Shown one piece after another: positions 8,424-60,386 of a DNA stretch of 64,000 nt. Within the stretch, counting starts at the first letter, position 1; the number at the start of each line of letters is the position of its first letter. The stretch spans positions 544,001-608,000 of the forward strand of contig OZ244057.1 of NCBI GenBank assembly GCA_965215515.1, written 5' to 3'. A model generated the notes under the pieces. The model had not been told where the DNA came from. It was given only the letters and a program-made list of their open reading frames with translations, and did not search any database. Source of the DNA: Oligoflexales bacterium. GTDB taxonomy: Bacteria > Bdellovibrionota_B > Oligoflexia > Oligoflexales > JAPPIL01. A program made the position numbers and the translations under genes.

Positions 8424-8748
8424 AAGGACTAACTCCACCAAACCTCACGGGCGGGGAGGATAGATAAGGCGAGAGAAAATTGCAAGTTTTTTATGCCCCC
8501 TTGTTAACTTCTGCCGACAACATCACTCTCAAGCATCGCCTATCTTGACATGGCGCACCAGATGACAAAGAAAGAAACCCGCACAGGGGAATTTAAGCAT
8601 TGTCTTGTCCCCCTACCGTGTGTTAGCCCTGGCGGGCCTTGCGTGGACATGTGATGACTTACACTTACGCGATCTTGTACGTGTGTGATCCCGATGGTTT
8701 TTTAGTGGACATTGGCTCGCCGCTGGATGCTGCTTAAGGCTACGCAGA

Positions 8749-37167: not shown

Positions 37168-37790
37168 TCAAGCACCTTTATTCGCCCAGCCGTCAATGCC
37201 ACCATCATCGGATTTCTTCGGGTTGCACTCCCAGCCCATAAACCCACAGATTTTTTCGGCAAAGGTGTGACCACCCATTTCTAGCCACTCCGTTTTGGTG
37301 CGAGGAACGTTAAGCAAGTCAAATTCCGGTGTATCAGTTATTTTGCTGAGCCTATCACTGATAACCCGCACGGCCACAGGTGATACATCGCCCACAATAA
37401 ATTTTCTGTTGAGTTTAGCTGCCACAGCTGCTGTAGTCCCCCCACCACCAAAGCAGTCAAGCACTATGTCACCTTCATTAGTTGAGCATTTGATGATACG
37501 CTCAAATAGATGAATCAATTTAACTCTTTTTTCCATCCATTCTATGTAGGTAAGAATCTCACCTCTCCAGCGATCTTCAGAAGAGCGACGTTCGTAGCCA
37601 TTGCCCCAAATAATTTCATAGTTTTTGTTTGAGAAAAAAGGCGGGTCAATGTAACACACATCAACCGATGCGGGCGGTATATCCTCAAGCCAATCTATAC
37701 AATCTCCACAGATAACATAGTTCTGCTTTGCGTCTATCTTTAATCTTTTCTTTGTTGGAAAATCAACAATGTTTTTTCTATGTTGCTCTT
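37168..37790 (-). pseudogene. amino-DNA methyltransferase / restriction endonuclease fusion remnant
   Basis: CGDC, YIDPPF and VLDCFGGGGTT motifs with the middle region missing, truncated just after DGGIDG. Confidence 0.78.
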
Positions 37791-38008: not shown

Positions 38009-38776
38009 GTGCGAAACCAGTGGAGACGATGCGTGAGCAAGAAGAGTTTTTTGATACTGGAATGGGGACAGGGGGAAATTCACACATCGGCGTGGTTTCA
38101 AAAACGGAAAATCGGCCGCCCTCTTATCCACAAGTATTTGGCTACTGGTCTGTTACAACGGCTGGGGGGTGGAGCTTACCTCAAAGCTGGCGATCATCTC
38201 GATTGGCAAGCCGCCCTCTATGCCGCCCAAAATGAACTAAAGCTTCCCATGCATGTTGGCGGTCGCAGTGCACTTGAGCTGTTAGGAGTGAGCCATTACC
38301 TGAATATGGGCAACAGACCTGCGGTATTTTTAATCGCAACGAGACGCTTTAGAATGCCTATCTGGATAAGAACAAACGACTGGGGAGTTGATCTTCGCGT
38401 CAGAACTTCCAGTATGTTCAAAGATGACATAGGCATCGAGATCTTGAAAAGGTCTAATTTTGCTTTAAAGATTTCTTCCCGTGAGCGGGCAATTATGGAA
38501 GTCATCGACACAGTAGATTTGAGCCATTTATTTGAGGAGATAGAACAGTATGCCGAGAATCTTTTAAACATTAGATCGAGCTTGACACAGAAATTGCTTG
38601 AGAAATGCGCATCTATCAGAACTAAACGTGTATTTCTTTACATAGCAAGCAAGATGAATTTACCTGTGGTTAAAAAACTACATATCGACAAGATAAATTT
38701 AGGCAGAGGCGACAGAACTATTGCTTTAAACGGAAAGTTTGACAAAAAATTTGCTATCACAGTGCCTGCTGAATAG
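38009..38776 (+). CDS. abiEi: type IV TA AbiEi-family antitoxin / transcriptional regulator
   Basis: TSAW, LGGGAY, HVGGRSALELLG.SHY, SSRERAIME and LLEKC.SIRTKRVF motifs. Confidence 0.85.
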   Translation: MRNQWRRCVSKKSFLILEWGQGEIHTSAWFQKRKIGRPLIHKYLATGLLQRLGGGAYLKAGDHLDWQAALYAAQNELKLPMHVGGRSALELLGVSHYLNMGNRPAVFLIATRRFRMPIWIRTNDWGVDLRVRTSSMFKDDIGIEILKRSNFALKISSRERAIMEVIDTVDLSHLFEEIEQYAENLLNIRSSLTQKLLEKCASIRTKRVFLYIASKMNLPVVKKLHIDKINLGRGDRTIALNGKFDKKFAITVPAE

Positions 38777-38953: not shown

Positions 38954-39781
38954 ATGTCAGTTGTTTTTGCAGTCGATAGGCAAGCCAAACACCCAAGTTT
39001 GCGGATGAGTGATTATTTTGCCAGAGACAGGGTATTCACACGTGTTGTGTTGGGTGAGCGTGATTGGCGGATAATGCGGTTGTTGTTTGAGAACAAGATC
39101 GTTAGCAGGGAGCAGATAGGTAACCAGTTCTTTCCCAATGTCTGCAAAGATACGGTGAACAGGAGATTGCGCAAGATTGCAGGGTTAGGCTTGATCAAAA
39201 AAACTACGGTGTATGTCGGACGCAGGGCAATTTCGGGCTACTCGCTGACACTACGCGGCCTTACCAAAATTACACCAACATTGCCTTACGAAGTAAAAAC
39301 CAAAGCTACACGCAGTGAATGTCCTCTGCATGACATCGCCCTGAACGATATTCGCAAGGTATTTGAAGCTAAAGACAAAGTGCAAAGCTACTACACCGAA
39401 AATATCCTGCAAACTCGTATATATTTCAAAAACAATGAGTGGTTCAAGCCATTCGTTGAACTGAACAGTGATGCGATGACCGAAGTAGATTCAAAAGTTG
39501 GCACGTTGTATTTGGCTATCGAATTCGACCTGACGCACAAAAGCCATCGCAGCTATAGGCGCAAGCTCTATGCCTATTATCGCCAACAAAAGATTGATGA
39601 AGTGCTCTACATCTGTGCGAACAGATACATTTTACACACCATACTGAAGCTAGATGCGGAGGCAGCAGAACGCCATCACTGTCACCCTAGATTGTATTTT
39701 GCTTTATTCGATGATGTCACTGGCAAGCATGATGAATTGCGTTTCACAAATGCGAACAAGCGCATTTTCTGTGTGCGTTAG
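38954..39781 (+). CDS. replication-relaxation family protein (wHTH + nuclease-like)
   Basis: LGERDWRIM...RRLRKI, HDI, SDA...AIEFDLT.KS...Y..K motifs; SD ggaggt. Confidence 0.7.
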   Translation: MSVVFAVDRQAKHPSLRMSDYFARDRVFTRVVLGERDWRIMRLLFENKIVSREQIGNQFFPNVCKDTVNRRLRKIAGLGLIKKTTVYVGRRAISGYSLTLRGLTKITPTLPYEVKTKATRSECPLHDIALNDIRKVFEAKDKVQSYYTENILQTRIYFKNNEWFKPFVELNSDAMTEVDSKVGTLYLAIEFDLTHKSHRSYRRKLYAYYRQQKIDEVLYICANRYILHTILKLDAEAAERHHCHPRLYFALFDDVTGKHDELRFTNANKRIFCVR

Positions 39782-39940: not shown

Positions 39941-41600
39941 GTGCCAACTGCGGGCGACTTGCTGCAGAAGCTCCCTGACAAGGAGAAGGCCAAGATCGCT
40001 AACACCTTGCTTGACGATGTGCGTAAACGCCTCGGCAATTCGAGATTGAGCCTAGTTGCTAATGATACACTAGACAATCTAGCCGTGGATTTCTGGCGCG
40101 TTTCGTCCACCGATCAGCGCGATGGCTACTCCCTCGACGCTCAGGAAAGCAAAGCGGTGGAGTATAAGAAAGCTGCTTGCCTTAAAAGCGTAAAATCTTG
40201 GGCGGTAAGTGAATCGGCATCGAAAGAGTTCGACCGTAAGAAATTCTTTGAGATGATCGGTTTCGTCGTAGAAAATGGCATCAAGAATGTTGTCTTTGAC
40301 AAGATCGATCGTGCTTGTAGAGGTCTAAGGGCAGCTGTGCTGATTGAGGACTTAATCGAATCTGGTGTGCGCTTCTACTTAGGTGTTGTGCTGGCTAAGT
40401 GGTATATCGACAACCTCAAGACCGAGATCAAGAAGGGGCTAAATACGCGGCTAGCTGAAGGCTATTTCAACGCTAGAGCACCCGTTGGCTATATCAACGT
40501 CCGTCCTAAATTTGGCAAGGCTAACCTTGAGGTGCGAGAGGGGGTGGGAGCGTTCATAAGTGAGTGCTTTGAACTCTACAAGACGGGAAACTATTCCCGT
40601 TTAGACCTTGAGAAGCTCGGCATTGCGAAAGGTATCAGCTGGGAATCCGAGCAGCGGGTCTTCAATGAGAACGGCAGGAGCAAGTTAGTTCTCACCACAA
40701 AACACGTCACTGCCAAGATGGCTTGAAAATATCTTGGTAAACCCCGTCTACTGCCAGTGCAGACGGGTTGATAACAAAATCGTAAAGGTCGAGAACGCCA
40801 AGTGGCCAGATCTTACCTCCTACACAACCTTCATGGCTTGCCAGAAGGTAAAAGGGATCAGAGCAATGCAAAGCCACTCCAAAGCAGCCGTTAGCATCCC
40901 AAAACCGCTGATGCAGCTAATGATGTGCCGAGCATGTAGTCACACCGTGACAGGTGAGGTAAAACGCAAAGCTTCAGGCAAGACGTATGTGTATTACCAT
41001 TGTGCCAACCCGCGTTGCTCACAGCGTCGCATCAATACGGAACAGAGAGAGCTGTTTCGGCAGTTTGCCGTTGCCTTTGAACCATTTGCAAGGTTTACCC
41101 CTAAAGCCACTGCCGCCTTCTTGAAGCTGATAAGGGAGCGAGTGAAAGACATCAGCCTCTACTCGGTGGAAGCAGTTAACAAGTTGAAAGCGAAACAGGC
41201 TGAACTCAATCAACGCCTGCAGGAGATTGAAGACTTACAGCAGAAAGGTTTACTGTCGTCTAAAGAGCTAGCCAACCTCAAAGCGGCAAGAGATCAGGAA
41301 GTCGAGGCAGCTGAGGTTGAGATCGGTGCACACATAAAAGCTGATATGCGAACTTTAGAGGTTGGGCTAAACATCATCGAACTGCTAAAGAATGCCCGTG
41401 ACTTCATGCACTTAGATGGGTTTGAACTGGAAAAAGCACGACTGCTAAAAGCAATGCTATCGAACCCGACCTTGGAAGATGGAATTATTGAATTTAATTA
41501 CCGAAAACCGTTCGACGACCTCCTGCACTTGACAGGGGGTCGGAATTGGTGGAGTTTAGCAATCGCGACACAGAATCCGTGCTCATTCCACAATTCCTAA
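39941..41600 (+). pseudogene. large serine recombinase with Zn ribbon, frameshifted (39941-40726 and 40734-41600)
   Basis: WRVSSTDQ..GYSL..Q, DKIDR, AP.GY and C..C...YYHC motifs; frameshift near 40726 and an apparent internal deletion. Confidence 0.8.
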
Positions 41601-42019: not shown

Positions 42020-43600
42020 AAGGGGCAGTTTACTTGCGTCTATCGGATGATACGCAGGTAGCCGTTGAACGGGGATCGCTGGAACAACAAATTCACATCG
42101 CCATCTCTGAAGCCGTATATCGATCAGAGCAGGAGCGGATGAATTACAGGATTACCGAGTTCTACATTGAGCCAGGCATCACGGGCACGCATGGCAATCG
42201 CCCTCTGTTGCCGCTTTCTCGCTCCACATCAGGCTACAGCACAACATCAGCCTCAAAAAACATGGCAATAGCAATTACACCAGCGAACAAGAAGCGAGCT
42301 AGCAAGCGAGCGTTACAAAAAGGCGGCGTAGCGGTTCTTCAGGCTGTGCCAGAAATACGATTGCGAGATATGCCTTAGAGGACTGCCGTTCAACCCTAAC
42401 GACCCCGCTTCGATCTTGCAGCTTGATCAGCTGGCAGCCTTTGCTGAATTTGAATCACGGACGACCTCCAAGCGTATCAGGGAAAGTAATCACTCTGCTT
42501 TGTTGACATCAGGGAAGTTTAACACCCACTACCCGCTATTGGGGTTTGATGTGGTCAGAAATGAATACGGCGAATGCACAGGCATCTACAAGCCCAACAA
42601 GGCAGAGCTAAAGCAGGTTGAGCTGATTATGAAACAATTTCTGCGCGTAGACAGGTTTAATCTGCTGATAGATTGGTGCAGGAAGATGAACATCAAAACC
42701 AAACGAGGCGAGAATTTCACTAAACACAGTATCAGAACGCTGCTGACCAATCCCCGTTACGTCGGCAAGTGGTATCGCAACAAGCACAACGAGGACAAGC
42801 GGCAGAGTAAGCTCATGCCTTATGAACGCTACACCGAAGTTAAATTGTGGCACGGTTGCGTTATCGACGAAGGGCTGTGGCTGCGAATTCAAAACAAGGT
42901 TAAGGAAATAGGCGAGTCGCGAGCACAGGCAATCAATCACTGCTACCCCTTATCTGGTTTGTTGTTTTTCAATGACGAATCAACTTTTGTCGGTAGTAGC
43001 GCATGGGGAAGAAAACGAAGATCGACCTACTACCACAATAGAGTTAACAAAATCAGGATCAGGACAGAGATTTTCGAGACGGCGGTAGAAACGGTCTTGC
43101 GTCAGATCATTGAAAACTCTCCAGAGTTTCAAGCAAGCATTGCAAATCATTCGGCACAAAAAGACACCGCGCTTAGTGTCGCAGCGGGAAAAATTGCCGA
43201 GATCGACACGAAACTAGACGAACTGGCAGACGAGAGGCAACGACTAGACCGCCGTTTGAACTTTCTGCTCGAAGACGATGATCTTGAGATGGCACGCTCT
43301 TTCAGGGAGGAGTATAGGGAGCGAGTTTCTGCTATGAAAGGCGAGGAACAGGAGCTTGCCGACAGGAAGCAACAGCTGCAGTTTGTGCAAAGACAGCTGG
43401 ATGAAACAAAGAACGTCAGCAAGAGCAGTTGGCTAGAGCATGTCAACCAAGCGCGATAAACTGTATAGGCAAGAAGGACTTGGTCGCACTCCAGTCTGCT
43501 TATAGGCGACTGTTTCACAAAATTATTGTTCACCCGTTGGAAAATGCAAAATTGCAGCTGGAGTTTGTTTTTAACGAAGTGTTTACATCTGCTTGCAGGG
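42020..43600 (+). pseudogene. second large serine recombinase, fragmented
   Basis: YLRLS...GSLEQQ, EPGITG..NRP, then AFAEFESRTTSKR, LGFD, NPRYVG and LSG followed by a coiled coil; interrupted at ~42200-42400 and 43459. Confidence 0.75.
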
Positions 43601-43683
43601 GAATGGACAAAATATGTCCCTCGGTTGATAGAATGGGCTCTAGAAATGAAGAGACAGAATTTTTGTTCAACCAACAGTTATCA

Positions 43684-44145
43684 ATGAAATCAAGCAGCTA
43701 TGACACTTCTTCTCTTATCCCTGAACCCCTGATCAAACAAAAATACCTCGAAGATTGCCTTTCAATTCGAGAAATTGCTAGAGAGTTTTCTTGTTCAAAA
43801 ACACACATCAGAAACCAGCTTCTCAAATACAACATCCCCATTAGAGAACCATCCAAGTATCACAAAGATCACAGCCGCACTTATGGAAAACGGAGGGTCG
43901 GTGGCAAAACCGTAGACCACAAAAGAGAGCAGAGAACCATTGCCACCATCAAAGAGATGTATAGCGAGGGAATCAAGCCAACTTCAATCGCTAGATTCTT
44001 GGATACCATGAAAACTCCCACCAAACAGCAGGGTAAGGGCTGGCATCATCACACGGTTATCACAATTCTCAAGCGAGAAGGGCTATATGTAACAAAAAAC
44101 AAACCTAGGAGGAGAAAATGGACACCATCGTCAATCTCATCATGA
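43684..44145 (+). CDS. HTH + recombinase DNA-binding domain protein
   Basis: LSIREIAREFSCSKT HTH; YG...IARFL...PTK..G..W...TV..IL recombinase-domain signature. Confidence 0.65.
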   Translation: MKSSSYDTSSLIPEPLIKQKYLEDCLSIREIAREFSCSKTHIRNQLLKYNIPIREPSKYHKDHSRTYGKRRVGGKTVDHKREQRTIATIKEMYSEGIKPTSIARFLDTMKTPTKQQGKGWHHHTVITILKREGLYVTKNKPRRRKWTPSSISS

Positions 44146-44751: not shown

Positions 44752-44782
44752 AATAAGCTTGTGAAAAACAAGCTTATTTTTT
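44752..44782 (+). terminator. perfect hairpin followed by a T-run (terminator-like or operator)
   Basis: aataagcttg-tgaaaaa-caagcttatt-tttt; AT-rich stem. Confidence 0.4.
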
Positions 44783-44860
44783 GCTAGAGGGTACACCTGC
44801 TTGCTCTTAAACCCTCAGTTAGTCTTGGACAGTCGTAGCAATGGGGGTTGTTGGCTAGTT

Positions 44861-46957
44861 ATGGTGAAAAGAATAATATACTCAATTCTAGCATGGACAA
44901 GATGGCTGTTGACTGGCACGGAAGACTCTATAACGCCTAGACCACCTGCCATCACACGGCAGAGAAGAAAGGATTCAAACAGCCATAGAGAATCTCTGAG
45001 TAGTCAAGATAGCCTGACTTACGAAACCCCCACCGAACAACCTTCAGATGACGATGTATCTGCAGTGTCAACAATCACCACAGTCAATGAGTCTTGCTCA
45101 GTCCCCTCTAATGATGCGTCACCATCTCCAAACACTAATGGTCTGGAGCTAGAGTCTTCCAGCCTGTCAGAAGCCACGCAAAAAGAGATGAAGATGCCAT
45201 CTACACAGCAGTCTGCTAGAATTCCACAAAAAACTTCGCATGAAGTCGTCAAACAACCCGGAGGCAACTCTCATCAAGAAATGCCTAATACTGCAGGTGC
45301 AGGCAATATAGAACCCAAGAAGCCAAAACTGCCACGCAAGATTGGAGGAAGACGTAGGCCAAAAGAACAAAAAACAACGCGACAGCCACCAAAACCTCGT
45401 CCAGAATTGATTTGTCGCGAGAATTGTGAATCTCAGCAGTGGGAGATAATCCTGACCGCAGGTGACGAATGCCAGATCAAGACCGTACATCAAAACGGTG
45501 TTTCTTTGGACATGAGAGACCATGAGTATCGCCTCTCGTCACTCACCAAACCATTGCAAATAGTTCTTGAGAGCGGGGAAGAATATGGATTCCCACTGTT
45601 TGAAGAGAAGCCATTTATTTTTAAATTGAGAAATGACTGGAAAGACAAGGGGCGTAAGACGGCTAGCATCAACAGGGGGCACTTTCTTGTAATTGTACCA
45701 AAAGAATGGGAACGAACAGGTCATGTTCCAGTTGAACCAAGCTTTTGCATGAACAAAAGTTTTAAGGCACATTATTTTTTCGGAGAGGATAATTATTTGG
45801 AAGAAGACATTGGAGGTTTTAGTCAGTGTGCTTTACCAACCAAATCAATTTTTAAGCTTACTGGCCAGCGTGTCTTCGATGATTCTGATGGCGGTGAACT
45901 GTTTGTTGGTGCTGTCCCAAGCTTAAAGCTTTTACAAGATATTGGTTGGGTGCGAATAGGAGAGGAGAAAAAAGGCGGTTGGAAGGGTGAAAATTTCAAT
46001 TCCAATGAGCAGAATATAACAGACATATTGAGTAATCGTGAGGGACATTTTTTTATCAGAGTTTATGATAACGAAGCTAGACAACTGGATAGTGGCGAAT
46101 TTCGTTATCTGAGTGATCTCGAAAAAATACTTGTGAATGGTAAGCCATACGAAAGAAATATGGTTCTTGTCCCGCCGCCGACTGGCTACCCTACGATAAA
46201 CGTGAGTTTCATTAGCAAAAATAACACAACCCTGCGTCCTATCTTGATGCACGATACGCAACACACTAAAGTGCAGGGAAGTAACCTCATTGTCGAGGCA
46301 CACCCAGATGGAGACAGTATATCTTGTAAACTTGAAAGCAACACAGGCAGTGTTGATCTCATATTAAATCTGCCGCGTATCTGGTGGAAAATTACCAGTG
46401 GTAAGTCTGATGAGTGGCATGACACACCACTTGTAATGACACGGCAGGAATTTTCTAAACATGCCAAACTGGATACCTATATCCAAATCCGTTTGTCACA
46501 ACGATTACGACATATTGGTGTTGGTTTCAACGACGAGTTAGAGCGAAAGTATAGTCGGGAGGGAGGTAAAAATGGCATTAACATCAGGTTGAAGGATTTC
46601 ATCGATTACTCACAAATAGATCAAAGGCTGGATAAGGATGCCGTGTTTAACATCAAGTGCGATGAAGAGATACTAACAATAATCAAGATTTCCTCCGATC
46701 CTATACCTGATAATGTCTCCGATGTAACCAAAAGTGTCACAGTATCTCAGCTGATAAAGCAAACAGGTAAACCAACAGCTATTGTAAGGAAAGTTACTGG
46801 TGGTTGGCGGAGAGGCAGGGGGTTTAGCATTGGCGAGATTAAAGATGCTGGGCTTACAGCTGCTGAAGCTATACACAGCTCTATTTCAGTTGACAAGCGG
46901 CGAAGAAGCACGCATTCAACTAACACAAAATTCATTAGGATACTGATAAATGCCTGA
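44861..46957 (+). CDS. large hypothetical protein with C-terminal ribosomal L13e-like domain
   Basis: Low-complexity N-terminus; C-terminal RRGRGFSIGEIKDAGL...ISVDKRRRSTH..N; stop overlaps the helicase start. Confidence 0.75.
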   Translation: MVKRIIYSILAWTRWLLTGTEDSITPRPPAITRQRRKDSNSHRESLSSQDSLTYETPTEQPSDDDVSAVSTITTVNESCSVPSNDASPSPNTNGLELESSSLSEATQKEMKMPSTQQSARIPQKTSHEVVKQPGGNSHQEMPNTAGAGNIEPKKPKLPRKIGGRRRPKEQKTTRQPPKPRPELICRENCESQQWEIILTAGDECQIKTVHQNGVSLDMRDHEYRLSSLTKPLQIVLESGEEYGFPLFEEKPFIFKLRNDWKDKGRKTASINRGHFLVIVPKEWERTGHVPVEPSFCMNKSFKAHYFFGEDNYLEEDIGGFSQCALPTKSIFKLTGQRVFDDSDGGELFVGAVPSLKLLQDIGWVRIGEEKKGGWKGENFNSNEQNITDILSNREGHFFIRVYDNEARQLDSGEFRYLSDLEKILVNGKPYERNMVLVPPPTGYPTINVSFISKNNTTLRPILMHDTQHTKVQGSNLIVEAHPDGDSISCKLESNTGSVDLILNLPRIWWKITSGKSDEWHDTPLVMTRQEFSKHAKLDTYIQIRLSQRLRHIGVGFNDELERKYSREGGKNGINIRLKDFIDYSQIDQRLDKDAVFNIKCDEEILTIIKISSDPIPDNVSDVTKSVTVSQLIKQTGKPTAIVRKVTGGWRRGRGFSIGEIKDAGLTAAEAIHSSISVDKRRRSTHSTNTKFIRILINA

Positions 46958-49900
46958 CAAAGACGACATAAAGGATTGGCCTAAGAAAATTTGCCAACGC
47001 TACGAGAGCTACTTAAAAACATCCTTCTTCTTTAAATATCCTAATCTCAGAAAATCTTTCCAAGAAGCATTGAGGAAAGAAGGCAGTCTTATGAAAGATC
47101 CAATCCCTGAAGAATATCGTAGTTTTAAGAAAGGCTTGACAGCTCAGGCATTAGCACAGAAATTTTTCCCTAGTAACAGCGATAGTCTTCTTCCAACTCT
47201 GATCGACGAGCAACTTTATACTCACCAAGAGAATGCTATTCGAGCCGCACATTCAAATTTTAACATCGTCGTTGCCACTGGCACAGCTAGCGGCAAGACC
47301 GAGAGTTTTCTTTACCCGATATTGTTCGAGCTGTATCAACAATATCTTGACGGCGAGCTTGAGAGGACTGGTGTGCGTGCTATGATTCTTTATCCTATGA
47401 ATGCACTTGCCAACGATCAGCGCGAGCGTCTTGGTGAAATCTGCAAGAATCTGGAAGATGCTGGTTCTAGGTTCAAGCCAACATTTGGGCAATACATCGG
47501 TCAGACACCTAATAACGCTCGTGACTATCACCGTAATGCTACAACACGAAGAGAAGATCGTCTGCCTGGAGAGCTTATTTTCCGTGATGATATGCGAAAA
47601 ACACCACCCCACATATTGTTGACCAACTACTCGATGTTAGAATATCTGCTCATTCGTCCTGACGACAGTCCACTGTTCGACAACGGTATGGGTAAACATT
47701 GGCAATTTATTGTGCTCGACGAGGCACATCAGTATCGTGGTGCTAAGGGCATGGAAATGGGTATGCTTATTCGGCGACTCAAACAGCGGTTACGAGACGG
47801 AGGGCGACAAGAGCCATTCCGTTGTATCGCTACCAGTGCCACCATTTCTTCTGGTAAAAGTGAGCAAGATAAGCAAGTGGTTGCTAATTTTGCTAAGGAA
47901 CTCTTTGGAGAAAAATTTTCTGCAAATGATGGCATTATTTTTGGTGATCCTGCACCCTCTAATAACGAAACACCTACTCGTTATCACGCCTTCTTTCGAG
48001 CACTTGAAGGGGCGTTTCTAATCCATAAAAACGGCGAAGATATTGTGGTACTCAATCGCAAAAGTGAGGGCGAAAACGAGAAGAGTGCAGTACCATTGGA
48101 AATAGCCTTGTGCAGAGAATGTGGCCAGCACTACTACGTTGGACGAGAGCATGAGGGAAAACTAGTGGAAGCTATACGAGATCCTAGTGACCCCCACTTC
48201 GGTGTAGACTACTACCTGCCTTTAAAGGATGACGATAATACGGGTGATGGACACGCACTATTGTTGTGCAGGAGCTGTAGTAAGATATCAAAATCCAAGC
48301 CAGAGTGCAGTTGCAATGCGACAATTTTTGTCAAAAAATGCGAACCACATAAAGATCATGCAGATCAGCTAGTGAAATGTGAGATCTGTGACTATAAGCG
48401 CGGTGGCATTGGTGACCCAGTGCAGGAAATTGTGCATGGCACTGATGGTCCCAATGCGGTTATAGCGACTGCTATGCACGAGTTATTGCCAGAGAATAAG
48501 CGCAAGGTACTTGCATTCGCTGATAGCCGTCAGGAAGCAGCGTTCTTTGCTTGGTACGCTGAGGATTCTTATGAAAAATTACGCGATCGCAACCTCCTTT
48601 TGAGAGCTATGACATTCAGTCGAGTTGACAAGGAGGGCTTATCCATAGATGATCTTAAAAACCGCCTATTACGCCAGTGTGAACAAGCTGGTCTATTTGT
48701 TAAAGCAGAAACCAAAGAGCAAAAGAGTTGGCAGGTACTAACGTCAATTTTGCGTGAAGCACTTACAGATGAAAGAAGATTATCCTTGAGCGGGGTTGGA
48801 TTAGTTAAGTGGTTTGTTAAGATTCCAGAAGATTTGATTGTACCAGAAATTATGCTACAGCCGCCGTGGAGTTTCACAAGAGAAGAAGCACTTTGTTTAA
48901 TTGGTTACCTATTGGATGAGCTACGCCTACACCGTGCCATGAATTTGCCAGAGAATGCCGCTACTCCAGATTGGAACGATGTCTCACCTGATCGTATACA
49001 AATTAGCTATTGCAAGGGGAAACCAGGAAGACAAAAGGGCGTGTCACAGTGGGGAAGTCCTCAGTCTGCTGTTGTCAAATACTTTCTGCGCAGGCTACTA
49101 GAAGGTAGTAACCTTCTAGTCGAGCAACATCAGGGAGAGTCAACAAAGCTGATGGAAGAAATATGGGATGTAATAAGAAAAATCAAAGATCCCCCAATTC
49201 TCTCTACTGGCTCGAATAACGGAACGTTTCGCCTCAACCCATGCTGGCTGCGCATCAAACCCGTTAAATTTGATGAGATATGGCAATGCGACACCTGCGC
49301 AAGTCTGAGTACTCACAACATTAGAAATGTTTGTCCACGCAATCGTTGCCCTGGCTTTCTGAATAATGTCGAGGAGAAGCAAACTGAGGAAAACCACTAC
49401 CGAATCATCTACAAAAGCACTGAGTTACCTCCTTCACTTAGTGCCAAAGAGCATACGGCACAGATTGATACCGACAAGGCACGGCAGCGGCAGCAAGAAT
49501 TCAAGGACGGAAAGATCCATCTACTAAGCTCTTCGACAACTTTTGAGGTTGGTGTCGATTTGGGTGATCTAGAAATCGTGTTTCTCCGTAACGTGCCACC
49601 AGAATCTTTCAACTACATCCAGCGTGTCGGACGGGCAGGAAGACGGGATACACCAGGTTTGGCAATAACCTACTGTCGTCGTAATCCACACGACCTCTAT
49701 CATTATGAAGATCCAAATAGAGCAATAAAGGGTACTATACACCCACCACACCTGAATATGACAAACGAAAAAATTGTATTGCGACACATGGTCGCTACCG
49801 TACTATCAGCGTTCTTCAGAGAAAATGAAGGTCGCTTCAAAGGCGTGGAGAGCTTTATCAAGAACTGGGACAGCCCGGCGATGGTAGGCGATGTAAGACA

Positions 49901-51197
49901 ATATTGTGAGGAAAACAACAAATTGCAAGATTACTTATGTCAAATTGTGCCCCAAGACATGCACGAGAAAACAGGGCTTGAGAATGGTGAATGGGTCAAA
50001 TATATTACTGGCGACAACAGTCGCCTCGCAATATCAGAGAAAGAAGTTAGCGAGGACTATAAACACATGGATAAAATAAGAGAAGAGGAGGCTAGTAAGA
50101 AAAATTATAGCCGTGCAGGTCGCATCGTCAGTCGCATGAAAACAATTGCCAGTGAGAAAACATTAGATTTTCTTTCTCGCAAAGCTGTTATACCGAAATA
50201 TGGCTTCCCCGTAGATGTTGTCGAGCTAGATACTCGCTCCGCGGATAAAAACAAAAGTGGCATCACTCTCCAGCGAGATCTATCTCAAGCTATTGCTGAG
50301 TATGCTCCCGATGGAAAAGTGGTAGCCAACAAGCTAGAGTGGAAATCGTGTGGAGTAAAAGTTGTATCTGGCAAAAGATTTCCTGTAAGATATTATCAAT
50401 ACGATAATGCTCGCAATTTTAACCAGTGGAACGAGGGTGATCCATCCAAACCGGAAGATGTTGAAAAAAAATATCTTATCCCAGAGTTTGGCTTTGTTAC
50501 TCCCTTTCTTGAGAAACCCAAACCACCGTCCAGACGGACACCACGTCTTTACACAACGCGTCCATTTTTTTTAAAGCCTAAAGAAGAAAATGAACTTGAG
50601 CCTAAAAACATTCTCGGCGTACAGGTGATCGCTCCACAGCCAGGTACTCTGGTTATTCTCTGTGAGGGAAAAAACATGAACAGATTCTATGTTTGCCTTG
50701 ACTGTGGTTGCCACATGGCAAAGACAAAAAAAGAACACAAATCTCCTTTTGGCTCAGATTGCAAAGGAATGTTAAAACGGTTTTCACTCGGCCACGAAAT
50801 GGTCACAGATGTTGTGCGCTTACAATTTCCAGATGTGTGTAACGAGTGGAAAGCCTATTCTGTTGCTTATGCCGTCTTACTTGGTACAGCGGAAACACTG
50901 AGCGTTCCTGCCAGTGACCTGAATGTAACCATAACTGGTGGCCGCAAGCCAGACGAATCCGCTATCGTGCTCTATGATAACGTACCTGGTGGAGCGGGGC
51001 TGGTGGCACAATTGGAACAGGAGGAGGTATTTCGTGAGATGATCACCAACGCGAAGAACAGAGTTGTAGGCAATTGCGGCTGTGATTCCAGTTGTTATGG
51101 TTGTCTGCGTAGCTACCGCAACCAATTCGCACACCCTCACCTAGATCGTAGGCTGGCACTAGAAGTTCTCGAAGGTGTAGAAAAGAACGAGATCTGA
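46950..51197 (+). CDS. DEAD/DEAH helicase with C-terminal DUF1998 Zn domain (DruE/DrmA-like defence helicase)
   Basis: LYTHQ, TGTASGKTE, YPMNALANDQ, DEAH, SAT, QRVGRAGR, YGFPVD, LYDNVPGGAG and C.CDSSCYGCL motifs. Confidence 0.92.
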   Translation: MPDKDDIKDWPKKICQRYESYLKTSFFFKYPNLRKSFQEALRKEGSLMKDPIPEEYRSFKKGLTAQALAQKFFPSNSDSLLPTLIDEQLYTHQENAIRAAHSNFNIVVATGTASGKTESFLYPILFELYQQYLDGELERTGVRAMILYPMNALANDQRERLGEICKNLEDAGSRFKPTFGQYIGQTPNNARDYHRNATTRREDRLPGELIFRDDMRKTPPHILLTNYSMLEYLLIRPDDSPLFDNGMGKHWQFIVLDEAHQYRGAKGMEMGMLIRRLKQRLRDGGRQEPFRCIATSATISSGKSEQDKQVVANFAKELFGEKFSANDGIIFGDPAPSNNETPTRYHAFFRALEGAFLIHKNGEDIVVLNRKSEGENEKSAVPLEIALCRECGQHYYVGREHEGKLVEAIRDPSDPHFGVDYYLPLKDDDNTGDGHALLLCRSCSKISKSKPECSCNATIFVKKCEPHKDHADQLVKCEICDYKRGGIGDPVQEIVHGTDGPNAVIATAMHELLPENKRKVLAFADSRQEAAFFAWYAEDSYEKLRDRNLLLRAMTFSRVDKEGLSIDDLKNRLLRQCEQAGLFVKAETKEQKSWQVLTSILREALTDERRLSLSGVGLVKWFVKIPEDLIVPEIMLQPPWSFTREEALCLIGYLLDELRLHRAMNLPENAATPDWNDVSPDRIQISYCKGKPGRQKGVSQWGSPQSAVVKYFLRRLLEGSNLLVEQHQGESTKLMEEIWDVIRKIKDPPILSTGSNNGTFRLNPCWLRIKPVKFDEIWQCDTCASLSTHNIRNVCPRNRCPGFLNNVEEKQTEENHYRIIYKSTELPPSLSAKEHTAQIDTDKARQRQQEFKDGKIHLLSSSTTFEVGVDLGDLEIVFLRNVPPESFNYIQRVGRAGRRDTPGLAITYCRRNPHDLYHYEDPNRAIKGTIHPPHLNMTNEKIVLRHMVATVLSAFFRENEGRFKGVESFIKNWDSPAMVGDVRQYCEENNKLQDYLCQIVPQDMHEKTGLENGEWVKYITGDNSRLAISEKEVSEDYKHMDKIREEEASKKNYSRAGRIVSRMKTIASEKTLDFLSRKAVIPKYGFPVDVVELDTRSADKNKSGITLQRDLSQAIAEYAPDGKVVANKLEWKSCGVKVVSGKRFPVRYYQYDNARNFNQWNEGDPSKPEDVEKKYLIPEFGFVTPFLEKPKPPSRRTPRLYTTRPFFLKPKEENELEPKNILGVQVIAPQPGTLVILCEGKNMNRFYVCLDCGCHMAKTKKEHKSPFGSDCKGMLKRFSLGHEMVTDVVRLQFPDVCNEWKAYSVAYAVLLGTAETLSVPASDLNVTITGGRKPDESAIVLYDNVPGGAGLVAQLEQEEVFREMITNAKNRVVGNCGCDSSCYGCLRSYRNQFAHPHLDRRLALEVLEGVEKNEI

Positions 51198-51382
51198 TAC
51201 CACCAGTAGTAGACCATTGCCGTAGCCTACAATCACATTCAGAAATTCACACAACCAAACTTGTTTGTTAAAACTGCAAGCTGATACATCAAAGTGGAAA
51301 ACAGTGCGTTAACTACCCTACCTTGATCGGTCGAGTGTGTGCAGGCTATCATATATTATATATCAGCTCTGGAGAAAATCAA

Positions 51383-52570
51383 ATGGCATTAGAAATGGTA
51401 GTGCTGTTTTTAGTTACCTTACTGGTTACATGGGTAGCCACCTTTTTCTTTCAGGTTAAACCAATTAGCAGACGAGCTTCCAATGCTGAAAAAGATCTTA
51501 CAGAAGCAAAAGCACGAATTAGTGCGTGGGAAAACACGGAGGCTCGCTTTTCCTCTTTGGCATACAAGGCTCTAAATTCCAATAGCGAACACTACCTAAA
51601 CCTTGTAAGTGAACGATATAGTCAACATGATAAAGATGCAAAAAATGACTTAGATAAACGACAAGAAGCCATAAAAACCCTTGTCTCACCTATAAGTAAG
51701 AGCCTGTCAGAATTTGAAGGTAAGGTTGGTGAGATCAAGAAAGAGTACGGATCGGTGACAGCAAAGGTTAGCTCTATGAATGACATCCAAGATAAACTAC
51801 GCTCGGAAACTAATCGCCTAGTGAGAGCTCTCCAACGTCCAGAAGGGCGCGGTGCCTGGGGAGAGCTTCAATTCCGTAATGTGGTTGAGATGGCTGGGAT
51901 GGCAGAACACATAGATTTTGAAGAACAAAGCACTATCTATGGCAAGGAAGACAAGTCACGTCCTGATGCAATTATTCGCCTTCCTAATGATAGGCTGCTT
52001 GTGGTGGATACAAAAACGCCAATTGACTCATATTTGGAAGCATCAAAAGCATCTAACGAAGACGAGCGCAAGGTTTATATGAAGAACTATGTAAACAATT
52101 TCAGAAAAAGCATAGATGACCTTTCTTACAAGAGTTATTGGGGTAAGCTACAGGATAAGCTAAAACGTGTACCTGACTTCGTAGTCATGTTCGTACCAGG
52201 AGAGGCATTCTTTTCTGCTGCCCTAACCTCTGACCCTAAACTAATTCAATATGGAGTAGAGAAGAATGTAGTGATTGCCAGTCCAACTACTCTTATAGCT
52301 CTTTTGAGGACAGTTGCCTACTGCTGGCAGCAGCACAAGTTCACCGAAAATGTGGAGGAGGTTTCAAAGCAGGCAAAAAAGCTATTTGAAAGCATCAAGA
52401 CGTTTGGTGAGCATATGTCAGGTCTTCGTAAAACTTTAGAAAATGCAGTGAAAAAATTCAACGACAGTATTGGCTCACTTGAGCGAAATGTATTACCAAA
52501 AGCAAGGAAATTTGTGGATTTAGGTGTTATTCCTGCCAAGGAGGAAATTCCGGAAATATCCTCCATCTAA
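51383..52570 (+). CDS. rmuC: DNA recombination protein RmuC
   Basis: N-terminal TM, RGAWGE.Q, RPDAII.LP...VDTK, DFVVMFVPGE and SPTTLIALL motifs. Confidence 0.92.
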   Translation: MALEMVVLFLVTLLVTWVATFFFQVKPISRRASNAEKDLTEAKARISAWENTEARFSSLAYKALNSNSEHYLNLVSERYSQHDKDAKNDLDKRQEAIKTLVSPISKSLSEFEGKVGEIKKEYGSVTAKVSSMNDIQDKLRSETNRLVRALQRPEGRGAWGELQFRNVVEMAGMAEHIDFEEQSTIYGKEDKSRPDAIIRLPNDRLLVVDTKTPIDSYLEASKASNEDERKVYMKNYVNNFRKSIDDLSYKSYWGKLQDKLKRVPDFVVMFVPGEAFFSAALTSDPKLIQYGVEKNVVIASPTTLIALLRTVAYCWQQHKFTENVEEVSKQAKKLFESIKTFGEHMSGLRKTLENAVKKFNDSIGSLERNVLPKARKFVDLGVIPAKEEIPEISSI

Positions 52571-58950: not shown

Positions 58951-59529
58951 ATGAGGAACGAGAAGTATTCGTTACTATACCAGATTGCCCTTGAGCAGCA
59001 GGGGCTGTTTACCGCCAAGCAAGCTAAACAGGCAGGCTTTGATGGGCGCAATCACCCATACTATGTGGCGAGAGGCGATTGGGAAAAAGAACACCGCGGG
59101 ATATATCGTTTGTGTCACTTTCCCAACGAGCCATCATCGGAATATACCCTCTGGTCTCTGTGGTCATGCAACCGGGATGGTGAGCCTCAGGGTGTCTACT
59201 CTTATGAAACGGCACTCAGTATTTATGACCTCACAGATCTAAATCCTGCTAAGATAACGATGACAGTACCGCTTGGCTTTCGCCGCAACGCACAGATACC
59301 CGGTATCCTTATTCTCCGCAGGGGAAAGCTTACATCAGCTGATTGGCAGGCGATAGAGGGTTACAGAGTTACCACCCCTGTTAGGACTTTGTATGATGTT
59401 ATTTTTTCCGACCATATACCTGAGGAGTTCATCTATCAGGCGGTAAGAGAGGGCTTCGCAAACGGACTATATCCCAAACGCAAGTTGCAAGAATACGGAA
59501 TACTCGACAAGGTAAAAAAATACCGATGA
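58951..59529 (+). CDS. abiEi: type IV TA AbiEi-family antitoxin
   Basis: A.EQQGLFT, RGIYRL, SYETAL..Y.L and VTTP.RTL.D motifs. Confidence 0.88.
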   Translation: MRNEKYSLLYQIALEQQGLFTAKQAKQAGFDGRNHPYYVARGDWEKEHRGIYRLCHFPNEPSSEYTLWSLWSCNRDGEPQGVYSYETALSIYDLTDLNPAKITMTVPLGFRRNAQIPGILILRRGKLTSADWQAIEGYRVTTPVRTLYDVIFSDHIPEEFIYQAVREGFANGLYPKRKLQEYGILDKVKKYR

Positions 59530-60386
59530 AATATAAATCGGCAACTGCCCTTCGACATGCAATACAGCACCGCCTGAGTTTAATCTCAGAAGGTAGGGAA
59601 GAGAGCGTGCAACGTCTGCGTCGGCATCTTGCCTTTGAGCGTTTGTTGGCAAGAGTCTTCAAGCAACCATCATCACCTTGGGTTCTGAAGGGTGGTTATG
59701 CTATGGAGCTGCGGCTACAAAGCTCTAGGACAACTAGAGACGTTGATCTCGCTGTATCGGAGGAGCGTCTGCTCACTTCAGGACACGAGCAGGTAGCAAA
59801 AGCTGTGCATACTAGGCTAATGGAATCACTAGCTGAAGATTTGGGTGATTTTTTCTCGTTCAAATTAAAGGAAAAGTACACTAAATTGTTTGCACCGCCT
59901 AGTGGTGGTGTCCGACTCTATGTTGATGCGATACTAGATAACAAACTGTTCTCCAGATTTCATATAGATGTTGGAGTTGGTGATGCCGAGATAATGCCTT
60001 TAGAAAACCTGACTAGTAGAAATCTGTTGGCCTTTGCCGGCATCGACTGCCCGCCGTTCCCATCTATTCCACGTGAACAGCATTTCGCTGAAAAAGTGCA
60101 TGCCTACACAACGCTGTATAATGGTCAAATGAGTTCACGCGTCAAGGATTTGATCGACATGGTGCTACTCATCCAAGGCGGCAAGATGGACAAAGTGAAA
60201 TTAGCAAAGGTGCTACCTCAAACTTTCAGCGTACACAAGAAGCATGCATTGCCACAAAAACTGCCAACACCACCTGCAAAATGGGCAACGAAGTTCGCCA
60301 CTCTTGCAGCAGAATGCCATTTGGAGTTGAGTCTTGAAGATGCCTTTGATCTCGTTAGCAGATACTACGATGAGTTGTCTACCTGA
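59526..60386 (+). CDS. abiEii: AbiEii/AbiGii nucleotidyltransferase toxin
   Basis: WVLKGG..ME.R...RTTRDVDL, AEKVHA and SRVKDL.D motifs; ATGA overlap with the antitoxin. Confidence 0.9.
   Translation: MKYKSATALRHAIQHRLSLISEGREESVQRLRRHLAFERLLARVFKQPSSPWVLKGGYAMELRLQSSRTTRDVDLAVSEERLLTSGHEQVAKAVHTRLMESLAEDLGDFFSFKLKEKYTKLFAPPSGGVRLYVDAILDNKLFSRFHIDVGVGDAEIMPLENLTSRNLLAFAGIDCPPFPSIPREQHFAEKVHAYTTLYNGQMSSRVKDLIDMVLLIQGGKMDKVKLAKVLPQTFSVHKKHALPQKLPTPPAKWATKFATLAAECHLELSLEDAFDLVSRYYDELST

Follow-up and report, generated by a model that had tools for sequence, protein, structure and literature searches.

We report that a 64,000-nucleotide stretch of the genome of an Oligoflexales bacterium (hereafter the window; GenBank assembly GCA_965215515.1, contig OZ244057.1, positions 544,001 to 608,000 of the forward strand) encodes a two-gene module, in which a DUF1998-type helicase related to DruE of the Druantia type III anti-phage systems follows a partner protein that ends in a domain derived from the archaeal and eukaryotic ribosomal protein eL13. 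Sequence profiles and structure prediction concur in identifying this tail as a genuine, conserved eL13 domain that was recruited to the partner. We posit, with a probability of roughly 55%, that the module is a Druantia-III-like anti-phage variant, in which the tail of the partner would act as a ribosomal-protein-derived module binding nucleic acid or the ribosome. Its novelty lies in the union of a III-B-like helicase with an undescribed partner family, which bears an eL13-derived, exchangeable ribosomal-protein cassette. The parts of the module, in window coordinates and with lengths in amino acids (aa) and base pairs (bp), are:

44861..46957, + strand: partner gene, 698 aa (open reading frame, ORF, and its translation), of a family of ~550-1200-aa proteins
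44918..45370, + strand: low-complexity N-terminal region of the partner, residues 20-170 (151 residues, with 23 S, 16 P, 14 T and 13 E)
45317..45418, + strand: basic motif K.PR.IGGRR ... RPELICR, residues 153-186, at the entrance to the folded core and present in the family consensus
45431..46735, + strand: all-beta core, residues 191-625, predicted to form an array of immunoglobulin (Ig)-like beta-sandwiches
46796..46939, + strand: eL13-like tail, residues 646-693, a predicted beta-hairpin with three short helices
46950..46957, + strand: 8-bp overlap, ATGCCTGA, of the partner stop codon (46955-46957) and the helicase start (ATG at 46950)
46950..51197, + strand: helicase gene, 1415 aa, compact DruE-like enzyme of the YprA/MrfA family
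47220..47849, + strand: DEAD/RecA1 domain of the helicase, residues 91-300 (Pfam PF00270, 2.5e-19)
49422..49646, + strand: Helicase_C/RecA2 core, residues 825-899 (Pfam PF00271, 1e-10)
50865..51107, + strand: MZB (MrfA Zn-binding, DUF1998) domain, residues 1306-1386 (Pfam PF09369, 6.1e-12)

The eL13-like tail and the adjoining helicase

An earlier note on this DNA had taken the end of the partner, RRGRGFSIGEIKDAGLTAAEA...ISVDKRRRSTH..N, for a recruited ribosomal L13e domain. This stretch comprises residues 650-688, and the proposal was upheld by Pfam, NCBIfam, a dedicated tail profile and Foldseek alike. The Pfam model Ribosomal_L13e (PF01294) recovers it with 30.2 bits, over a gathering cut-off of 24.9 (E 5.1e-7), aligning residues 649-685 with profile positions 62-98 of 180 (37 positions). 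The NCBIfam model of archaeal L13e, NF008914, extends the match to residues 648-693 on positions 27-72 of 83 (46 positions, E 1.5e-11); its score of 43.7 bits falls short of the equivalog threshold (96), as a fragment would be expected to. Phmmer searches with the partner against PDB sequences returned 61 matches at E<=1, the best being 9e6q_AH (2.7e-5); the 60 listed comprise 58 eL13/L13 chains and two of the IcmE/DotG repeat protein. A profile of the tails from 35 related loci, across which G, F, S, E, D and R are invariant, recovers the eL13 of P. calidifontis (9e6q_AH) at 8.1e-16 and eukaryotic eL13 at ~1e-9. The last 69 residues were modelled by AlphaFold2 with a predicted local distance difference test (pLDDT) score of 86, and 48 Foldseek matches to the model reach E<=0.001. 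The 50 matches listed are eL13 chains throughout (TMq 0.56-0.79, root-mean-square deviation, rmsd, 2.0-3.5 A), placing the predicted fold as that of eL13 in solved ribosomes. A linker between core and tail (model residues 430-443) has a pLDDT below 50, and the tail is therefore probably flexibly tethered.

In a six-frame PF01294 search of the 2.18-Mb genome to which the window belongs, the tail is the sole match (E 6.8e-8), and the same search found none in any of 14 control genomes. As the profile and PDB matches agree and the control genomes are devoid of matches, the likeness to eL13 is far beyond chance. Relative to eL13 proper (PF01294; NF008914), the tail resembles the conserved core in its sequence signature and in its predicted fold and is closest to the archaeal type. 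It differs in being that core only, with which a bacterial protein of 698 aa terminates, and in having a helicase encoded next door; with 37 of 180 Pfam and 46 of 83 archaeal-model positions covered, the gene is not a ribosomal protein gene, and its product does not qualify as a full-length component of the ribosomal subunit. Stand-alone short proteins resembling the tail (region 640-698) were represented by four candidates, none at E<=0.01, in a test that is weak on account of its word index and database size.

The small number of Pfam positions covered might suggest that the likeness to eL13 is no more than an inert relic or a chance resemblance of motifs, i.e. a short basic peptide with a repeat-like G-F-S..E-L..A-G motif and no function of its own. 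Consistent with this, the half-motif GFS..EL..AG.T also fits the short repeats of IcmE/DotG, which tops the search with the 35-tail profile. However, it does so by summing short repeats (GFS..EL..AGFT), no single stretch of which passes alone, and the match shows only that half of the motif is simple. The matches to eL13, in contrast, extend through D.RRRS.H..N, which is absent from the DotG repeats, and cover 46 of the 83 archaeal-model positions; moreover, the predicted fold superposes on eL13 chains within 2.0-3.5 A. The position and sequence of the tail are also retained in 236 of 292 relatives, and its loss goes with substitution by another folded domain, not with deletion. We accordingly regard a relic or coincidence as very improbable.

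The earlier note had also described two overlapping genes, and this layout was borne out, both genes lying on the + strand. The 8-bp overlap indicates translational coupling of the partner to the helicase. It recurs in related loci, where the partner end and helicase ORF start are at 8560/8544 (L001), 8731/8721 (L002) and 8734/8727 (L003), the helicase ORFs in these loci being the longest ones, taken from the first ATG, GTG or TTG. The partner frame remains open further upstream, from a TTG at 44801; the ATG at 44861 agrees with the homologs, in that residue 2 of the query aligns with residues 2-3 of P0123 and P0129.

The helicase is, by its sequence matches and domain content, a compact DruE-like enzyme of the YprA/MrfA family. 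It matches the PADLOC models DruE1 and DruE3 at 5.4e-160 and 2e-148, respectively; its best matches among PDB sequences are 9tu7_Y, a 2108-aa DEAD/DEAH helicase (3.7e-74), and 9wae_A, a 1970-aa helicase (1.7e-40), with Bacillus subtilis YprA (6znp_A) at 5.8e-25. Its motifs GTASGKT, DEAH and QRVGRAGRR are all intact, as is the terminal Cys cluster. Pfam scans at E<=1 detected only a weak SNF2 match besides the DEAD, Helicase_C and MZB domains, and no nuclease domain (PLD, Vsr or other); the protein terminates soon after the MZB domain, which ends at residue 1386 of 1415. The impression that it is shorter than typical DruE was correct: DruE of an E. coli plasmid has 2104 aa, the C. butyricum relative 1559 aa and, according to the available part of PMC13316683, DruE of M. 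smegmatis 1667 aa. Over residues 16-1407 it is 66% identical to the helicase of locus L011 (OXC42_09305), which is catalogued as "Druantia Type III-B-like" in a supplementary table of PMC12458937. This identity to a listed member indirectly places the window helicase in the published III-B-like clade, a branch described in the accessible portion of that paper as mostly lacking a nuclease domain.

A partner family with exchangeable terminal cassettes

The partner can be divided into a variable N-terminus, a beta-rich core and the tail. Residues 20-170 lack any majority residue in the family consensus, which was derived from two alignments, A1 (102 sequences) and A2 (26 sequences), and are probably disordered; the basic motif that follows is present in both alignments. 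An AlphaFold2 model of residues 191-698 (mean pLDDT 90.6) consists almost entirely of strands up to model residue 420. With this model, Foldseek recovers tandem Ig-like or beta-sandwich proteins from the PDB (S-layer Sap, DSCAM, titin and contactins) at TM-scores of <=0.17, which are low because the domain arrangements differ. Judging from the family consensus, many relatives possess one additional Ig-like domain ahead of the tail that the window partner lacks. A complex prediction for helicase residues 480-960 and partner residues 191-698, made with alignments, scored 0.00 against a mark of 0.32 and bears on neither side of the question.

The family is large. Among clusters at 90% identity we found 182 relatives (E<=0.001); at 50% identity there were 803 representatives, of which 622 reached E<=1e-10. 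The few relatives with a source name are annotated as hypothetical. One genome per species was scanned with the 26-row alignment as query, which identified 46 loci, all from metagenome-assembled genomes, spanning 12 named phyla. Directly downstream of the partner and on the same strand, 43 of these show a DruE-like tblastn match, which is full-length in 38 and 57-73% identical to the window helicase; the exceptions are L004, at a contig end, L046, with a partner fragment, and L005. No other ORF of the window is shared by any of the 46 loci. The helicase is much better conserved than the partner (mean column identity 70% versus 30-63%), and the partner was detected in three of 31 genomes from the order of the window (G000 counted among them). 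The pairing and the mobility evident from these sequence comparisons point to a self-contained, horizontally mobile two-gene unit of the Druantia III kind.

A third component of any kind was also sought and ruled out: clustering of all ORFs of at least 90 aa across the loci revealed no third conserved gene, the other recurring clusters being shadow ORFs inside the two genes.

In a set of 292 family sequences (245 database proteins and 45 locus ORFs, not de-duplicated), the eL13-like tail profile matches 236 (~81%). Pfam was scanned with 60 unselected representatives and 49 members lacking the tail motif; PF01294 was detected in 41 of the 60 unselected relatives at E<=0.01, and in 19 of the 60 above the curated threshold. 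Several of the remaining members bear other domains at the same position, those assigned by Pfam being:

Ribosomal_S17 tail: P0074 (2.4e-30) and L023 (2.7e-27)
Ribosomal_S6 tail: P0240 (6.6e-25) and P0120 (5.7e-7)
Ribosomal_S5 N- and C-domain tail: P0155 and P0234
Complete Ribosomal_S2 tail: L045 (3.5e-92; rpsB_bact 1.4e-93)
MacB_PCD tail: P0197, a single member
HHH_5 tail: P0221, a single member with a weak match

In addition, at least 27 of the 292 sequences end in tails of five recurring types, A-E, which no Pfam or NCBIfam model matches, and 20 more are truncated or unclassified. Searches of the ESM Atlas with two of these types gave scores of 0.76-0.79 (DsrD and DUF3104), below a useful level. 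Judged by eye, the types may include uL29-like, helix-turn-helix (HTH), HARE-HTH-like and NusA-like HhH domains. Loci with a replaced tail retain the downstream helicase. When tail type was mapped onto a FastTree phylogeny of 268 distinct cores, from which the tails had been excluded, at least 21 changes were required, and most replacement tails were sister to eL13-tailed proteins. This suggests that the eL13 tail is apparently the default state, which has been replaced many times. As a new observation from these comparisons, the tail position thus behaves as a swappable cassette.

Two of the recurring types deserve separate description. Type A (P0066, P0077, P0085, P0102, P0103, P0108, P0177 and L013) is a basic coiled-coil-like peptide, ..KKQIKALKVKREAAL..RRQIRRLKRK.., and type C arose at four separate points of the core phylogeny, always with an eL13-tailed protein as its sister.

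The N-terminus likewise carries additional domains in certain members. The partners L040:4385-8434 (1349 aa) and L042:4358-8431 (1357 aa) contain, in one open frame, sigma-70 regions 2, 3 and 4 along with region 1.2. This part is 52-55% identical to host RpoD-like genes; its best model is RpoD (1.3e-106), while MzaA (NF041931) follows at 6.1e-91, under the NF041931 cut-off. The MZA system similarly includes a sigma-70-family protein, MzaA, within an anti-phage system, but the likeness is limited to these two partners and does not extend to that of the window, and RpoD scores better. An N-terminal PIN domain in P0175 (1.4e-5), which keeps its eL13-like tail, points to a possible nuclease-bearing variant in a family otherwise without nuclease, and three members have an N-terminal DUF4389. 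We also noted that L040 lies on the same contig as L017, giving two copies of the module in one genome; the L017 copy has an eL13 tail and helicase fragments, and the L040 copy the sigma-70-fused partner and a full helicase.

Certain cassettes have evident counterparts in their own genomes. In G001, the S2 domain fused to the partner and the stand-alone rpsB, which sits in a normal rpsB-tsf-pyrH operon, share 96% identity in protein as well as in DNA (680 bp). The 24 differences comprise 15 synonymous and nine non-synonymous changes (dN/dS ~0.18), and together with the high identity they indicate a recent capture from the host that has been kept intact. In G002, by contrast, the fused S17 and the genome's own S17 share 55% identity.

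These cases raise the alternative that the cassettes are mimics of host machinery, copying parts of the gene-expression apparatus such as ribosomal proteins and sigma-70, so that engagement of the cassette would release or activate the helicase. This could take two forms: the cassette might plug the partner into ribosomes or RNA polymerase and thereby survey expression, or it might be an integrated decoy that baits phage factors binding or modifying such components. Phages modify or bind ribosomal proteins and sigma-70. The recent and intact S2 capture fits such mimicry, as do the sigma-70 regions 2-4 at the N-termini of L040 and L042, a third copy of S2 in G001 (99% identical over 852 bp) within another large gene, and the fact that all Pfam-assigned tails are ribosomal (eL13, S2, S5, S6 and S17), save the single MacB_PCD (P0197) and the weak HHH_5 (P0221). 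However, the commonest tail, that of eL13 type, has no bacterial counterpart to copy; the fused S17 and sigma regions are just 55% and 52-55% identical to the host genes; several tail types are not recognizably ribosomal; and there is no known phage trigger. We therefore consider mimicry possible but doubtful. In its general form, and at the same tentative level, the partner family might be a modular immune sensor that bears host gene-expression parts (S2, S5, S6 or S17 at the C-terminus, sigma-70 at the N-terminus) as decoys or plugs, with the eL13 tail of the window as a widespread, host-independent version.

The third S2 copy of G001 forms the N-terminus of a 697-aa ORF, L055:8737-10830, and its 99% identity to rpsB is at the DNA level. 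Past S2, this ORF has an acidic linker and a Cys/His-rich C-terminus, HNH-like by eye, in which Pfam finds no match. It is flanked by genes for a Sacsin-like ATPase and an SNF2 helicase, with an N6-methylase gene nearby, and the region has the appearance of a second defence-like operon carrying a captured S2.

Relationship to Druantia III and genomic setting

The earlier proposal of a Druantia-III-like variant is supported in part: the helicase is DruE-like (PADLOC 5.4e-160), and the partner is not DruH by sequence. PADLOC returned no family for the partner at E<=1, so no DruH model among them, and the existing DruH models thus fail to explain the pair. Likewise, none of four tested relatives matched a PADLOC DruH model at E<=0.01, while E. 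coli DruH (L048:2501-5860, 'STY4851/ECs_5259 family'), the positive control, matches 11 of them. Comparison of the family profile by hhalign gave a probability of 0.2% against E. coli DruH and 0.5% against the C. butyricum partner, and there were no DruH chains among the PDB matches returned for the partner by sequence or structure. Homology of the Ig array to that of DruH was considered, and the sequence-profile comparison did not reveal it.

Canonical DruH has an N-terminal alpha-helical (exonuclease) domain, six Ig-like domains and, at its C-terminus, an alpha-helical domain, according to the available part of 10.64898/2026.05.13.724313, which also has the C-terminal domain touching the DruE stalk; the accessible text of 10.64898/2026.05.12.722862 reports that this domain binds single-stranded DNA (ssDNA). 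At the corresponding positions, the window partner has the low-complexity residues 1-190 and, by prediction, a 48-residue eL13-like fold. As it apparently lacks both helical domains of DruH, the partner is better viewed as an analog of DruH than as DruH with an added domain.

The Druantia III-A systems of E. coli and P. aeruginosa similarly consist of two co-directional, overlapping genes, with the partner upstream of a YprA-family helicase with DEAD, Helicase_C and MZB domains, and DruH is likewise built around an Ig-like array between terminal domains. This array, predicted in the window partner, is the only feature that it appears to share with DruH. In contrast, the window helicase is ~700 aa shorter and lacks the PLD nuclease domains found at the C-terminus of III-A DruE; the partner has 698 aa versus ~1100 aa in DruH, and its low-complexity N-terminus and eL13-like cassette apparently stand in place of the helical exonuclease domain and the helical C-terminal domain, respectively. 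The window helicase is linked to the III-B-like clade by its 66% identity to a listed member and, as in most of that clade, has no nuclease domain. The available part of the paper on this clade, PMC12458937, contains no description of the partner family or its cassette; the terms L13e, L13 and 'ribosomal' are absent from that part and from four supplementary files, of which file 2 is incomplete.

The surroundings of the module differ in composition from the remainder of the window: the guanine-cytosine (GC) content is 0.40-0.50 in the second half (34000-64000), module included, and 0.53-0.57 in the first 34 kb. No tRNA genes were found in the window. The elements around the module are:

37168-37659: DNA-methylase fragment, low-GC half
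38009-38776: AbiEi_3-type gene, low-GC half
38954-39781: relaxase-like gene, low-GC half
39941-40726, 42416-43459 and 43429-44145: serine-recombinase pieces, low-GC half
44752..44778, + strand: terminator-like hairpin and T run, a pattern match only, from a consensus scan (11-pair stem, 5-base loop, tail TTTTGC)
51323-52570, + strand: RmuC-family gene (E 2.9e-89), 3' of the helicase and on the same strand
58951-60386: AbiEi/AbiEii pair, low-GC half

The stretch from 34000 to 64000 has the appearance of a decayed mobile or defence island, and this low-GC setting with recombinase fragments and AbiE genes also speaks for the mobility of the module. The terminator-like hairpin, ~80 bp ahead of the partner ATG, may close the preceding unit. 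The RmuC gene was considered as a third component and ruled out; it is conserved in none of the 46 related loci and is therefore probably a neighbor rather than a component.

Even so, the RmuC gene next after the helicase raises the alternative that the pair is non-immune, namely an MrfA/YprA-like helicase with an accessory protein that serves in housekeeping or stress-related DNA repair and lies in the island by chance. The YprA/MrfA helicases do include DNA-repair enzymes, as stated in the available part of 10.1101/2025.09.15.676423, and the window helicase matches B. subtilis YprA at 5.8e-25. The PADLOC DruE scores are, however, far above that match, and the nearest catalogued relative falls in the defence branch of the published tree. 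Furthermore, a repair function sits poorly with the patchy distribution (three of 31 related genomes, G000 included), with the spread of the module across phyla at high identity and with the lack of conservation of RmuC in the 46 loci. We hence deem a repair role improbable.

Proposed mode of action and its implications

For the favored reading, i.e. a Druantia-III-like anti-phage variant with a ribosomal-protein-derived binding module, we propose the following scheme by analogy with III-A. The partner would take the role of DruH, as a sensor or adaptor that licenses the helicase, with the Ig array as its scaffold and recognition surface. Its tail would bind nucleic acid, be it structured RNA, the ribosome or possibly ssDNA in the manner of DruH's C-terminal domain, and may have the part of nucleic-acid sensor or regulator that the earlier note envisaged. 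The helicase may then be an ATP-driven motor that moves 3'-to-5' along ssDNA, unwinding replication intermediates of the phage; for III-A DruE, the available parts of two preprints (10.64898/2026.05.13.724313 and 10.64898/2026.05.12.722862) show motor action on ssDNA-containing replication intermediates. As Pfam and PADLOC scans found no recognizable nuclease in either protein, the killing step would need host nucleases or a mechanical disruption of replication.

Several points weigh against this scheme. A role in defence is argued from the helicase clade, the genomic context and the patchy occurrence of the module. The PADLOC and hhalign comparisons reveal no kinship in sequence between the partner and DruH, and the partner apparently lacks both DruH helical domains, for which reason the mechanism of DruH may not transfer; the scans just cited leave the module devoid of a recognizable nuclease. 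We know of no site for eL13 on the bacterial ribosome, and ribosome binding is thus unsupported for the commonest tail. By eye, some of the type A-E tails resemble HTH or winged-helix domains; as at least 27 of the 292 tails are unassigned and some look HTH-like, the shared property may be general nucleic-acid binding rather than a ribosomal one. The S2 cassette that is 96% identical to host rpsB is more in keeping with mimicry of the host than with a generic binding module. As for the pairing, the full partner of L005 is followed by no helicase over the 4.9 kb downstream, and L017 has helicase fragments only.

We found no published description of the partner family or of an eL13 tail beside a DUF1998 or Druantia helicase, though the supplements of the 2026 bioRxiv preprints might bear on the point. 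Ribosomal-protein terms are absent from the Druantia papers searched, PMC13316683 having been searched, in its available part, for the term 'L13' only. The combination of integrated decoy, anti-phage and ribosomal protein was similarly not found in the literature.

While Druantia III is now being dissected biochemically, only the DruH-type partner has been studied so far. Our findings indicate that the large III-B-like helicase clade also pairs with an entirely different partner family, which comprises 803 clusters at 50% identity, occurs in 12 phyla and is overlooked by the DruH models of existing defence finders. They also document an archaeal/eukaryotic ribosomal-protein fold that has been domesticated and is widespread in bacteria. 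The presence of the eL13 core, S2, S5, S6, S17 and other domains at one position constitutes a natural domain-swap series, which opens recognition by the terminal domain to direct testing. Should the cassettes turn out to be host mimics or anchors to the ribosome, a DNA-targeting defence would be tied to the translation apparatus, a principle not described in bacterial immunity. Moreover, if the partner is a modular sensor built from host parts, it would be a bacterial counterpart of the integrated-decoy immune receptors, coupled to a DNA helicase.

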